This document shows positions 60,148 through 63,130 of a stretch of 64,000 bases of DNA, piece after piece. The position numbers and the translations under genes are program-made. Positions within the stretch are counted from its first letter, which is position 1; each line of letters begins with the position of its first letter. The stretch comes from Escherichia coli (GTDB taxonomy: Bacteria > Pseudomonadota > Gammaproteobacteria > Enterobacterales > Enterobacteriaceae), in assembly GCF_011045215.1 (NCBI RefSeq), contig NZ_CP049201.1, one strand, 5' to 3'. The notes under the pieces were generated by a model, which saw nothing but the letters and a program-made list of their open reading frames with translations, ran no database searches and had not been told where the DNA came from.

Positions 60148-61896
60148 TTATAAAAATTCCTCGGTTCTCTCCGTTCTTATAACGTTAGTCTGTGTTCGTC
60201 CTTTAAAACCTCTGGTCAGATATTCAGCCCCATATTCTCTTGCAGCCGCCTTCATGGCCTTACCAAAATCATTAACACTTAATTTTTCTTCTTTGCCTAT
60301 GTACTCCATAAAGGCAAGATAAAGCCTGTACAGACTTGTACGTGGGTTAAGGTCAACTGTTCTCTTACCGCCTCCCATCATCATTCCATGCGGTTCGTCA
60401 AGAAATGCAAGCGCCGCACATAACCCAATGACAGGATCAGTTTCCTGTTTTATTTTCAGAGCTTCGGCACCGTCACGCTGCTCAAGCAATAATTCTCGTG
60501 CTTTTTCTGGATCTGAAAAGTTAGTAAGCAGTCTACGAATAATGACAGGTATTTCTGCCGCTATCTTTTGCGGTAATTCTTTATCATTTTCGGTCTCCCT
60601 TACAATATTATCGAACTGAAAAATTACACGTCGACGTGCAACTCCTCCGGCCCGTTCGGTGAATATCATCGGCACGTTGTTTGTTGCCAGCACGACAGCC
60701 CTGATAATTGCTGTGAAACGCTTCTCATATTTCGGGTTAATTTCCACGGGGTCGCCGCCAGTTATTTTCTTGATTCCCGATCCTTCGCCTGTATATTTCG
60801 GCTGGTCTGTCAGGACAATAAGACGACTTCCGACAACCTGTGCACGCCCGCCAGCATCATCAAGCGATGTCATTTCGGCGCTTACCGTGTTCTGTTTCCC
60901 TGCCAGAAGGGTGGCTATGTGCGTAAATGTGCTCTTGCCGCTCCCGCCGTCTCCTGTGGCCTCAATAAACATTTGCCAGTCGTACCGGTTAGCCATAATC
61001 ATGTACAGCGCGGCGCATATACGCATCATCTTTCGCGGGTCTTTTCCTGCAGCGTGATCAAGCCATTTATGAAAGTTTGGCGCGTTGTCGCGGATGTTCT
61101 CCCCTGGTGCTGGTGGCGTGTACTCAATGCCGTTATGCGTGGTGATCCAGTTATCCAGCGAGTGCGGGGAAAATTCGCCAGTTTTCAGGTCAAACACGCC
61201 ATTAGCGAACGGCAATAAATCACCTGACGGCTCCCCCATTGGCCTGGCCATAACTTTTAAAGCATCCACTGCATTGCTTATTGCTCTCCGGCTAAACGCT
61301 GTTCCGTTTTCTTCGTAAATAGCCACCATTTCACGACTAAGATCCAGTATGCTTACCGGAACCCAAAAATCATCGCGCCAGACGTGGACAACCTCACTCT
61401 CCTGATTCATTGCTACATCCTGAAATCGTTCAGCTAAAAGTTTTGCCCTTTGGCTGTCCGCCATTCTGGAAAGAGATATTTTGTGTTTTTTCTCGGTCCT
61501 TCCTGACAGAATTTCTCCGCGCTCAGCCTGTTCGCGTAACCGTTGCAGGTAATCGCGCCAGTTCTCCGGCTCCCGGTCGGTGATACCTTTGTATAATTTC
61601 GCCTCCTGTACGCCAGCCAGCGCCAGTTTTTCAGCGATAGCGTTGATCTGGATTGGCTCTATCTCCCCCGCGAGATAGACACGTGCAAAGCGGCGTTTCT
61701 CGTCAATAATGCGGATATTCGCCAGGTCTGCCAGTTGCTTTGGCCCCAGATAAACAGGTGGCACGTTATCGCCGTGTTTTCGTCCTTCACTTTCAATCCA
61801 GTGTTGAGCATGGGCGTAAGCATCCGTCCCGGCAAAAATGATTACCTCGGTGAATTTATCCTTCGGCTGATATTTTAAATTCGGTGCGTTTTTCAC
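60148..61896 (-). CDS. Primase-helicase (Pri-Rep-like; D5/P4-alpha-type P-loop NTPase)
   Basis: 582 aa; Walker A GDGGSGKST, downstream LIVLTDQP Walker-B-like; start overlaps upstream gene (ATGA); iterons immediately downstream. Confidence 0.75.
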   Translation of the reverse strand: MKNAPNLKYQPKDKFTEVIIFAGTDAYAHAQHWIESEGRKHGDNVPPVYLGPKQLADLANIRIIDEKRRFARVYLAGEIEPIQINAIAEKLALAGVQEAKLYKGITDREPENWRDYLQRLREQAERGEILSGRTEKKHKISLSRMADSQRAKLLAERFQDVAMNQESEVVHVWRDDFWVPVSILDLSREMVAIYEENGTAFSRRAISNAVDALKVMARPMGEPSGDLLPFANGVFDLKTGEFSPHSLDNWITTHNGIEYTPPAPGENIRDNAPNFHKWLDHAAGKDPRKMMRICAALYMIMANRYDWQMFIEATGDGGSGKSTFTHIATLLAGKQNTVSAEMTSLDDAGGRAQVVGSRLIVLTDQPKYTGEGSGIKKITGGDPVEINPKYEKRFTAIIRAVVLATNNVPMIFTERAGGVARRRVIFQFDNIVRETENDKELPQKIAAEIPVIIRRLLTNFSDPEKARELLLEQRDGAEALKIKQETDPVIGLCAALAFLDEPHGMMMGGGKRTVDLNPRTSLYRLYLAFMEYIGKEEKLSVNDFGKAMKAAAREYGAEYLTRGFKGRTQTNVIRTERTEEFL

Positions 61897-62183
61897 TTCT
61901 TACCTCCCGCAACCAACATTGCCCGGATTTTTTTAATATTCGTGGCTGCACGTCTTGCCACCGCCTGTTGTTTGTTTTCAACCAGAATAAAATCACGCTC
62001 AAACTGACGGCGCGGCATTACACAGTCATATTCGTAAGCCTCACGGCGGTAGGTGATATTGCCTGGCGTAACGTAACGAATAACCACTCGTCCCCCACGT
62101 CTGGTGTCGCGGTAAATATCTCCGTGTCTGATTTCAGGCCGAGCGGGGCCGCTGGCAGTAAAGCCAGAATTTTTCTTTTTCAT
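61893..62183 (-). CDS. Hypothetical basic protein (96 aa)
   Basis: ORF translationally coupled to the primase-helicase gene. Confidence 0.6.
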   Translation of the reverse strand: MKKKNSGFTASGPARPEIRHGDIYRDTRRGGRVVIRYVTPGNITYRREAYEYDCVMPRRQFERDFILVENKQQAVARRAATNIKKIRAMLVAGGKK

Positions 62184-62189
62184 GGTTTT

Positions 62190-62555
62190 TTACTCCTGCG
62201 TCTTGCTCTGAATTACCTGATAACCGCAATCGGTCAGCAATTCGATAAATTCCGGCAATGTGCCGAAACAGCAATCATCACGCAGACGTTCGCGAGAAAC
62301 CTCAACGCCGTTTTCATAATGGCTCACCATGCGTCCGGTAAAATGCAGATCATCATCGTGATGGCACGTTGACGGCTTAATCAGTCGCGCACGTTCCGCC
62401 AGTTCCAGCAATGCTTCAACGCTTCCGGCAATTGCACCATCCGGCAGGTGGTAATTACGCACTATGCGCCCGTTCTCCACATGGACCAGTAGCTGCCCGG
62501 TAAATTTCTCGTCAAACTGAATGCTGTTAAGGTCAGAAATTGACAGGTTATGCAT
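62190..62555 (-). CDS. Hypothetical protein (about 122 aa)
   Basis: Start taken at MHNLSISDL with GGAGG RBS 6 nt upstream; overlaps upstream gene stop. Confidence 0.6.
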   Translation of the reverse strand: MHNLSISDLNSIQFDEKFTGQLLVHVENGRIVRNYHLPDGAIAGSVEALLELAERARLIKPSTCHHDDDLHFTGRMVSHYENGVEVSRERLRDDCCFGTLPEFIELLTDCGYQVIQSKTQE

Positions 62556-62772
62556 GGTGCACCTCCTGCACATCAGCCATGATAATTTTTCCGGCCTTAT
62601 CCAGTGCCTGATCGGCTTTTAGCTGCACAAATGCTAAATAATGGGAGATGCATTCTGATTCTCTGGCTGCGTGTTTATGCGCCACACCAGCGATAGCAGA
62701 AATCTCAATAAGTGAATCCATTAGCGTTTTGATAGCGTCTACCGCTGCATCAGACCATGTTGTATTACACAT
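62548..62772 (-). CDS. Hypothetical protein (74 aa)
   Basis: ATG overlaps stop of upstream gene (ATGTGTAA) with GGAGG RBS. Confidence 0.6.
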   Translation of the reverse strand: MCNTTWSDAAVDAIKTLMDSLIEISAIAGVAHKHAARESECISHYLAFVQLKADQALDKAGKIIMADVQEVHHA

Positions 62773-63130
62773 GCTCCACCTCCTGGCGAATACGGGCAGC
62801 GAATACCATCACGCAGCCATCAGGAGATTGCTGGCGTGCTTCCTGTTCGCTGGTGGCCTCGATGTGAATTACGCGCGGTTGTGCCGTGCTCAGGGCGATA
62901 AAACGCCAGATAAAATTGTTCTCGCATTTCTGAATAAACAGCGTGTTTTCTTCGCGCCCTTTCCATGTTGCCGAGATATAGCCCATGTCATTGAGCATCT
63001 CGCAGGCATCAACCAGCGTATCGGCGGCTACGTGTACAGTGTTTTTACCGTCAGCTATGCAATCACGGTGCACCGCCAGGAAGGTGTATATAAATTTAGG
63101 GTGAGTTTGGGTATGCTGTGTTCCAGCCAT
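62765..63130 (-). CDS. Hypothetical protein (about 121 aa), first gene of leftward operon
   Basis: Internal start MAGTQHTQTHPKFIYTF within ORF-track 62765..63967; the upstream extension is low-complexity and overlaps the divergent promoter. Confidence 0.55.
   Translation of the reverse strand: MAGTQHTQTHPKFIYTFLAVHRDCIADGKNTVHVAADTLVDACEMLNDMGYISATWKGREENTLFIQKCENNFIWRFIALSTAQPRVIHIEATSEQEARQQSPDGCVMVFAARIRQEVEHV

Follow-up and report, generated by a model that had tools for sequence, protein, structure and literature searches.

The right-hand end of a 64,000-nt stretch of Escherichia coli DNA (contig NZ_CP049201.1; the whole stretch is hereafter called the window) carries four small minus-strand genes, g1 to g4, directly upstream of a gene for a P4-family primase/helicase (pri-rep). 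The genes lie in a satellite element related to the phage-inducible chromosomal island (PICI) EcCICFT073. On the other side of g1, an intergenic region of 199 bp separates the chain from a divergent gene of the YlcI/YnfO family and holds operator-like repeats, and a predicted small RNA lies opposite the g1 start (Table 1).

Table 1. Genes and predicted regulatory features of the g1 to pri-rep region (positions in the window)
Feature	Position	Strand	Size	Description
g1	62765-63130	-	121 aa	Icd-like; first cistron of the operon
g2	62548-62772	-	74 aa	phrog_5146; variable cassette
g3	62190-62555	-	121 aa	phrog_340 duplication; variable cassette
g4	61893-62183	-	96 aa	DUF4222; conserved final small gene
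pri-rep	60148-61896	-	582 aa	GTG start; P4-family primase/helicase; last cistron of the chain
Candidate -10 hexamer of the antisense RNA	63112-63117	+		TATGCT; inside g1 codons 5-7; read from the sequence
Predicted SymR-like cis-antisense RNA	63125-63205	+	~80 nt	Rfam match, fold and covariation
Three operator-like copies of TGGTATTCA(C)	63232-63286	63232 (+), 63253 (reverse complement), 63277 (+)		~22 bp apart
Tentative early promoter	63240-63268	-		TTGAAA-17 nt-TAATCT; read from the sequence; interleaved with the repeats
YlcI/YnfO-family gene	63330-63629	+	99 aa	NF041551, 60.4 bits

A coupled chain of small genes led by an Icd-like cistron

The initial annotation of this DNA had described four open reading frames (ORFs) between 61893 and 63130, of 121, 74, 122 and 96 amino acids (aa), which overlap from stop to start and form one coupled operon leading into pri-rep. 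The frames, all on the minus strand, and their limits are as described, and the lengths are correct for g1, g2 and g4. The g3 protein has 121 and not 122 aa when read from the ATG behind its GGAGG; an in-frame ATG further upstream would give 127 aa. Overlaps of stop and start are found at the first two junctions. The g1/g2 junction reads ATGTGTAA, an 8-nt overlap with GGAGG upstream that places the g2 start over the g1 stop, and the g2/g3 junction reads ATGCATAA, again an 8-nt overlap, with GGAGG 6 nt upstream and the g3 start over the g2 stop. At the g3/g4 junction (TAA-aaaacc-ATG) a 6-nt spacer takes the place of the claimed overlap, and AGGAG lies within the last g3 codons. The 4-nt overlap that had been given as ATGA actually joins the g4 stop to the GTG of the primase and reads GTGA, while relatives have ATGA at this place. 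The four genes and the primase form a single coupled operon. All four genes show pairwise ratios of nonsynonymous to synonymous substitution (dN/dS) of 0.06-0.5, and are therefore real coding genes. We rejected a 400-aa ORF (62765-63967, minus strand), an S/C-rich, non-coding read-through of the leader and the antisense strand of ylcI.

We compared this arrangement across 82 related loci, 80 from IMG/VR and two from RefSeq (individual loci are given L numbers), and it recurs among them well beyond chance. The module comprises the divergent YlcI/YnfO gene, the Icd-like gene, variable small cassettes, a DUF4222 gene and a replicase, and 1292 of 5426 complete E. coli genomes carry a match to part of the 2-kb region. 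The chain starts with the Icd-like gene in 82/82 loci, overlapping the next gene by 8 or 11 nt; the encoded proteins measure 67-68 or 120-122 aa, with one 96-aa form. Zero to four small cassettes stand between the Icd-like gene and DUF4222. In nearly all loci that can be traced to the replicase, the last gene before it is DUF4222, with a 4-nt overlap onto the replicase start. The replicase itself varies in type: there are primases of 582-606 aa, RepA-type helicases of ~470 aa and also ~710-aa forms. The junction sequence GGAGGTG-NNN-C-ATG-NN-TAA recurs in these loci and gives each upstream protein a C-terminal '..QEVxHx'; in the form GGAGGTG-N-ATG-NN-TAA the junction is conserved and shared with P4. 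Instead of the distinct gene set that had been suggested, the operon is thus one mosaic variant of a very common module.

Among the closest described systems is EcCICFT073, in which int, a gene for a helix-turn-helix (HTH) protein, the YlcI/YnfO gene (on the opposite strand), a 66-aa Icd-like gene, four small genes, DUF4222 and the primase follow in this order. It shares with the window the divergent YlcI/YnfO gene, the Icd-like gene, the small overlapping genes, DUF4222, the P4-family primase, a PerC-like gene and the late/packaging zone, and this synteny of the regulatory and replication zones places the window element among the EcCICFT073-type Gram-negative PICIs. A SymR-like RNA at the Icd start (53 bits) and a phrog_5146 member are shared as well. 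EcCICFT073 differs in its single-domain Icd-like protein, in its cassettes (76, 73, 73 and 77 aa) and in lacking the ProQ/FinO-domain gene of the window, whereas the window has a tandem-domain g1, the cassettes g2 and g3, and integration at yifB. The EcCICFT073 genes of this module have been treated as hypothetical, with AlpA the only regulator named (PMC6092414).

As the initial annotation had noted, none of the four proteins resembles an AlpA or HTH regulator in Pfam, NCBIfam and PHROGs scans, and Pfam matched none of them to the AlpA or HTH_17 models. Its expectation of an AlpA gene upstream of pri-rep is contradicted by the relatives, which carry a small HTH gene beside int instead. In locus L002, which occupies the same yifB site, the 62-aa HTH gene beside int is recognised by the same scan as Pfam Phage_AlpA (PF05930; E 3.4e-18); the small HTH gene beside int in EcCICFT073 has a RefSeq accession neighbouring that of the L002 AlpA. 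This position agrees with the published four-zone scheme of Gram-negative PICIs (integration, Bro, replication and late; PMC10111431). AlpA is therefore not expected upstream of pri-rep, and the Icd-like-to-DUF4222 operon is the normal occupant of that slot. The int and alpA genes of the window element would fall past base 64000, outside the stretch. In another related locus (L059, 1259-1327), ~3.7 kb ahead of the Icd-like gene, lies the Rfam 'int-alpA RNA' motif (RF02996), which scores 49.8 bits and exceeds its gathering threshold.

The four genes had been described as of unknown function. They are biochemically uncharacterised, as that description implies, yet g1 and g4 belong to named families. 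The g1 protein matches the NCBIfam Icd-like family NF033153 over residues 73-116 with 80.6 bits (cutoff 25). A profile built from the C-terminal domain of the g1 family matches P1 Icd (33.4 bits, E 2.7e-12), which was not detected by plain tblastn with g1, and also matches P4 ORF137; the motif common to P1 Icd and the g1 family is PEFIWRF...ATE.EAR..P.G...F.AR. The N-terminal half of g1 in turn matches the C-terminal domain profile (hhalign 96%, E 3.8e-9; hmmsearch 1e-6 to 1e-4), residues 3-22 align by BLASTP with the start of the P4 Icd-type domain, and the AlphaFold2 model (mean predicted local distance difference test score 77) contains two beta-beta-alpha-beta repeats. We conclude that g1 consists of two tandem Icd-type domains, the N-terminal one being a diverged second copy. 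The gene has pairwise dN/dS values of 0.0-0.35. The g1 protein is likely to block cell division or to be toxic to the host.

The PHROG label 'transcriptional repressor' (PHROGs 6196 and 1743) was rejected for g1, as it appears to trace to the obsolete 'cI' annotation of P4 ORF137; that frame (L085, 8168-8584) encodes an Icd-like domain and also contains the CI RNA. Database entries of 184-212 aa that are named 'Icd-like', and likewise the ~125-aa forms that start '..KPGSALTLTGLLT..', are over-extended calls, and in both the surplus residues are the RNA hairpin in translation. Among 50,697 phage records, tblastn with g1 found a single match, a 16.5-kb 'induced prophage' that is probably a satellite, and tblastn with g4 found none; the genes belong to satellites and not to phages.

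The g2 protein matches phrog_5146 (E 1.4e-47), and its dN/dS is ~0.2 against homologues of ~50% identity. The g3 protein matches phrog_340 and phrog_2512 and is an internal duplication of the ~60-aa phrog_340 unit, the halves of which align with each other (BLASTP E 3e-7; dN/dS of g3 0.1-0.4); in other loci the unit stands alone as a 66-aa cassette gene. Both g2 and g3 touch phrog_2512, and we rejected a kinship between them, finding the two proteins unrelated. No Pfam match was found for g1, g2 or g3, no PDB match for g2 or g3, and nothing meaningful in PDB sequence searches with all four proteins. The only Pfam match, that of g4 to DUF4222 (PF13973), covers residues 16-68 (E 1.5e-18). This domain is not restricted to satellites, and a lambdoid prophage of CFT073 (L087, 15192-15431) has a DUF4222 gene beside its excisionase. 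A PADLOC scan of nine proteins, the four small ones among them, matched no known defence family. The primase matches TIGR01613 and phrog_864 and shares 40% identity with P4 alpha across residues 142-578. Its first ~142 residues (window 61471-61896) form a module that is 87-92% identical between P4-type primases and RepA-type helicases (L002, L023, L027, L075 and others) and travels with DUF4222; it may be the DUF4222 partner or the origin-binding part of the replicase.

A published locus from strain ECOR61, described as a prophage-encoded locus for superinfection exclusion and programmed cell death, offers a functional view of this gene family. Transposon suppressors of the cell death triggered there by orf24 are reported in three genes, one Icd-like (366 nt) and two small (186 and 192 nt). 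The effect needs all six linked genes, the primase among them, and is lost when the Icd-like gene is removed (bioRxiv 10.1101/2023.04.06.535777). Four of our loci (L029, L042, L044 and L046) show the pattern 121[-8]61[-1]63[0]73[+17]99[-4]583 (protein lengths in aa, with overlaps and spacers in brackets), which reproduces the ECOR61 lengths and overlaps. They are 86% identical to the window in g1, 55% in g4 and 71-72% in the primase, and their middle cassettes encode 61, 63 and 73 aa (phrog_3672, 1478 and 2196) as opposed to 74 and 121 aa in the window. Matched by gene lengths, overlaps and names, the ECOR61 locus appears to be a close variant of the window operon.

These comparisons bear on helper-phage interference, which the initial annotation had raised for the four genes. 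Such a role is plausible from gene position, because g2 and g3 hold the slots of P4 epsilon, which derepresses the helper, and orf151, without sequence similarity to them. It is also possible, though we hold it to be doubtful, that g2 and g3, and g4 perhaps as well, are passengers or accessories that have no regulatory or interference role and are coupled through the compactness of satellites. The shuffling of none to four middle cassettes among loci fits that explanation, as do the lack of any functional family match for g2 and g3 and the absence of similarity of g2, g3 and g4 to P4 epsilon, orf151 or orf106. It fits less well with the purifying selection on g2-g4, a junction sequence that is conserved and shared with P4, the essentially invariant position of g4, and the ECOR61 transposon suppressors in two small genes (which polarity could explain).

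A predicted SymR-like RNA at the g1 start and upstream repeats that co-vary with the YlcI/YnfO allele

In a scan by E-value, the Rfam family SymR (RF01809) matches 63125-63197 of the plus strand over its full length (37 bits, E 3.4e-4). Opposite the predicted RNA lie the start codon of g1 (CAT at 63128-63130), the AGGAG ribosome-binding site of the gene and its 5' leader. An 86-nt stretch folds into two hairpins with a minimum free energy of -33.8 kcal/mol (z -6.0). The loop of stem-loop 1 carries the anti-Shine-Dalgarno sequence CUCCU, and stem-loop 2 is followed by UUUCGUCGUUUC, a U-rich tail that makes it terminator-like on the antisense strand only.

The structure is conserved among the relatives. 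All 29 sequence variants from the loci adopt the same fold. Compensatory changes are found in 7/23 pairs among 15 hand-picked variants, and in 11/23 pairs among 37 distinct sequences aligned with a covariance model, in which 99.2% of cells are paired; 0/500 shuffles reach the covariation score, and slid controls pair at 36-45%. Of the 850 paired cells, 129 (15%) are G.U, and one pair is G.U in all 37 sequences. Because such pairs become A.C on the sense strand, the RNA is that of the antisense strand.

In E. coli K-12, SymR has a length of 77 nt; it is transcribed from a promoter within symE and has been shown to repress the synthesis of SymE (PMC1891008). A covariance model of the island RNAs matches the annotated K-12 symR at its exact start (34.4 bits, E 2e-6). 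The same model gives one match in 81/82 loci and one in EcCICFT073 (NC_004431, 1380769-1380851, minus strand), always antisense and abutting the Icd-like start; the single locus without a match has a deletion. When symR and the window RNA are aligned, the -10 hexamers TAGAAT (K-12) and TATGCT (window) coincide column for column, and the K-12 hexamer has been inactivated experimentally (PMC1891008). The 5' ends (AGTCAT/AGCCAT), linkers (TGATTAG/TGGTTAG) and loops (GTGTTGGCGCAC/GTGTTAGCGCAC) match as well. The two RNAs are alike in size, in their two hairpins, in the blocks UGrUUAG and GUGUUrGCGCAC, in a promoter (a candidate one in the window) inside the target ORF, and in a 5' end a few nt inside the coding sequence that covers the start codon and Shine-Dalgarno sequence. 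This reciprocal similarity and shared two-hairpin architecture mark the predicted window RNA as SymR-like. The targets are different: the window RNA faces an Icd-like gene and not the AbrB-fold SymE, and this gene is the first of a five-cistron operon, whereas symR has a single gene as its target. No LexA box, such as controls symE, was found near 63100-63330. In the literature that we searched, SymR-type RNAs were not linked to Icd-like genes, PICIs or satellites.

The DNA inverted repeat folds on both strands, and 84% of cells still pair on the sense strand. The hairpins might then act in the sense mRNA leader, as an attenuator, as a stabiliser or by sequestering the ribosome-binding site, with no antisense RNA at all. 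We consider this very improbable given the G.U pairs, among them the one present in all 37 sequences, the restriction of the U-rich tail to the antisense strand, and the reciprocal similarity to K-12 symR, which agrees with the window RNA in orientation and register and has its -10 hexamer aligned with the candidate one. An antisense RNA transcribed from within g1 probably keeps the operon silent.

Upstream of g1, the intergenic region holds the three copies of TGGTATTCA. The divergent YlcI/YnfO arrangement is kept in most loci and in EcCICFT073, and across loci the repeats keep a constant place, 90 to 190 nt ahead of the start of the Icd-like gene. The repeat sequence differs between loci, and ~8 repeat sequences track ~8 YlcI/YnfO alleles. 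Loci with TGAATACCA have YlcI/YnfO proteins 93-100% identical to that of the window. Identity to the window protein is 68-71% with TGATATACA / TGAGATACA, 65-67% with TGAATCACA, 70% with GTATATACA, 49% with GTGAAATACAC, 42% with GTGTTCAACA, 47% with GTCTTACAC and 53% with GACTTGCAC. This co-variation is the pattern of repressor-operator immunity types, and suggests that YlcI/YnfO binds the repeats. The N-terminal sequence pattern of the protein makes it a candidate ribbon-helix-helix repressor. We found nothing relevant on YlcI/YnfO in the literature searched, and the co-variation of repeats and alleles is not described there.

An early operon proposed to be gated twice

Genes of the Icd family are also found next to small RNAs in P1 and P4. 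In the immI region of P1 the c4 RNA comes first, its a2/b2 targets lie over the ribosome-binding site of icd, and icd overlaps the ant gene by 4 nt. Translation of icd is blocked by the c4 RNA, and expression of ant depends on icd (NC_005856 annotation). P1 and the window are alike in having an Icd-family first cistron, a small RNA (a predicted one in the window) at its start and a stop that overlaps the next gene. In P1, however, the RNA is of the C4 type, encoded upstream on the same strand and acting on short a/b sites, whereas the predicted RNA of the window is a fully complementary cis-antisense RNA of the SymR type; the downstream gene is an antirepressor in P1 and a primase in the window.

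The left operon of P4 reads (vis)-eta/kil['cI ORF137']-epsilon-orf151-orf106-alpha. As in the window, an Icd-like frame comes first (ORF137, 73.9 bits against NF033153), an 8-nt overlap (GTGCGTAA) after GGAGGTG joins ORF137 to epsilon, epsilon and orf151 likewise overlap by 8 nt, and two or three small genes lead to a homologous primase (40% identity). Immunity in P4 is RNA-based, with the CI/C4 RNA just upstream of the Icd domain. The window element differs in lacking psu, delta, sid, an epsilon homologue and a CI/C4 RNA, in its replicase of 582 aa compared with 777 aa in P4, in carrying DUF4222 where P4 has orf106 (DUF5375), and in the presence of a divergent candidate for a protein repressor. 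Membership among P4-like satellites was rejected, as g2-g4 have no similarity to the small P4 proteins and there is no C4/isrK match in 55000-64000. With its predicted RNA, the window operon is thus a third version of the P1/P4 design, in which a small RNA gates an Icd-type first cistron to which the downstream genes are coupled.

Taken together, the gene chain, the RNA and the repeats lead us to favour, with moderate confidence, an early/replication operon of a yifB-inserted, EcCICFT073-type PICI that is gated by both a repressor and an antisense RNA. We propose that a single transcript carries the five translationally coupled cistrons g1, g2, g3, g4 and primase. In the resting state, YlcI/YnfO would bind the three repeats interleaved with the promoter and repress transcription. 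As a second layer, a constitutive SymR-like RNA of ~80 nt, made from inside g1 on the opposite strand, would pair with the g1 ribosome-binding site and start. A leaky transcript would thus stay untranslated at g1, and nothing downstream, primase included, would be made, because the downstream starts sit in or beside the preceding stop. A helper phage would lift the repression, so that sense transcripts outnumber the RNA, g1 is translated and ribosomes are passed on to the primase. The g1 protein would serve as a host-directed effector through its cell-division block or toxicity, and g2 and g3 as swappable accessory cassettes. The g4 protein, predicted to form a Tudor-like barrel and encoded by a gene that overlaps the replicase gene of whatever type, probably acts as a partner of the replicase. 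Read-through driven by AlpA from the side of the integration zone may provide a second route into the operon, as published for EcCICFT073.

Several observations weigh against this proposal. Neither the g1 fold nor the g4 fold returned a specific functional match. The early promoter is weak, falling below the threshold of the scan tool with a -10 that matches at 3/6 positions; it may be activator-dependent. Against Pfam, YlcI/YnfO gave only a weak PSK_trans_fac match (E 0.035) and no significant DNA-binding domain. The SymR match lies below the Rfam gathering score (37 against 61 bits), as do the RNAs of L029 and L040 (35-40 bits against SymR), and the larger covariation count comes from an alignment that was itself fitted to the model, a bias in favour of the structure. 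Coupling across the 6-nt g3/g4 gap would have to proceed by re-initiation and not by overlap. Finally, induction of EcCICFT073 has been attributed to AlpA with mention of neither a repressor nor an RNA (PMC6092414), and AlpA-driven read-through might bypass both layers of control.

The growth inhibition seen with the ECOR61 homologue on expression of the phage accessory gene orf24 raises another explanation, in which the operon serves primarily in anti-phage abortive infection as a type I toxin-antitoxin system, with an Icd-like toxin, a SymR-like antitoxin, and death or arrest triggered by phage. The ECOR61 architecture matches the family of the window, the effect disappears without the Icd-like gene, SymR acts as the antitoxin of a type I system (PMC1891008), and the annotations of P1 Icd and P4 Kil describe both as inhibitors of growth. 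We nevertheless regard a primary defence role as rather unlikely. The operon always ends in the element's own replicase, joined by a 4-nt overlap and so inseparable from replication; the ECOR61 phenotype was muted and needed all six genes; and PADLOC finds no defence family. Abortive infection and a function in the satellite life cycle are compatible with each other.

A broader version of the gated-operon proposal is tentative. The 2018 description of enterobacterial PICIs called a global repressor 'unclear' (PMC6092414), and SymR-type RNAs together with allele-specific YlcI/YnfO repressors could conceivably be the missing immunity layer of these islands, the RNA gating a tandem-Icd leader toxin. 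The variable terminator hairpin would then set specificity groups among the RNAs, letting several islands share one cell, and K-12 symE/symR would be a relative of this mobile regulatory cassette with a different toxin.

The genes themselves belong to known though uncharacterised families in a known kind of element; what appears to be new is that an Icd-led operon should have a predicted SymR-type RNA and putative operators specific to the repressor allele. PICIs of Gram-negative bacteria are very common, and about a quarter of complete E. coli genomes match part of the module. Their silencing and helper switch-on have so far been described only through the activator AlpA. If YlcI/YnfO and a SymR-like RNA keep them silent, induction could be tested with a few mutations and reporter fusions, P1 immI, P4 immunity and symE/symR would be united under a design with an RNA-gated, Icd-type leader cistron, and the ECOR61 cell-death phenotype would be explained. 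The 'transcriptional repressor' label and the long 'Icd-like' proteins extended by translated RNA hairpins are annotation problems that propagate between databases.

The island around the operon

The host genes are E. coli hdfR, maoP and yifB/comM. In the window, yifB (53598-55001) lacks ~50 N-terminal codons, and the element begins just to the right of it and runs past 64000; in L002 the missing yifB fragment is found past the integrase (20592-20765). The insertion site of the satellite is the 5' end of yifB/comM. Read from the left, the element carries genes for a TerS-like HTH protein and a DUF2213 protein, PerC-like and ProQ/FinO genes, and an AT-rich iteron region, followed by a 115-aa gene, the primase, the four small genes and the divergent YlcI/YnfO gene. 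L002 continues with an antA/antB gene, the 62-aa HTH gene and int. We rejected a capsid-forming PICI, as the interval from yifB to the primase holds no gene for a capsid, a portal or a large terminase subunit. No C4/CI or IsrK immunity RNA was found in 55000-64000 by a scan that finds both in P4.

To the right of the operon, a 59-aa ORF (63699-63878, plus strand) follows ylcI on the same strand and has a 57-aa counterpart in EcCICFT073. A further plus-strand ORF starts at 63937 and runs off the window. Complete E. coli genomes have next to no match to this right-hand part.

Downstream of the primase there are two iteron-like sets. One (59828-60135) contains the motif GGTAGA(C/T)A at least ten times and in both orientations, the other (59099-59425) six CCCCACTTTT motifs in a stretch of 27% GC, and together they are probably the replication origin. 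Further left, at 58131-58957 on the minus strand, the PerC-like gene overlaps the ProQ/FinO-domain gene by 4 nt. The presence in one island of a FinO-type RNA chaperone gene and a FinP-like two-hairpin antisense RNA is suggestive, and we speculate that the RNA might pair with the help of the island's own ProQ/FinO-domain protein. Two consecutive terminator-like hairpins with U tails (58055-58131, minus strand) directly follow the PerC-like gene and give weak Rfam matches to ncr1175 and the Thr leader.

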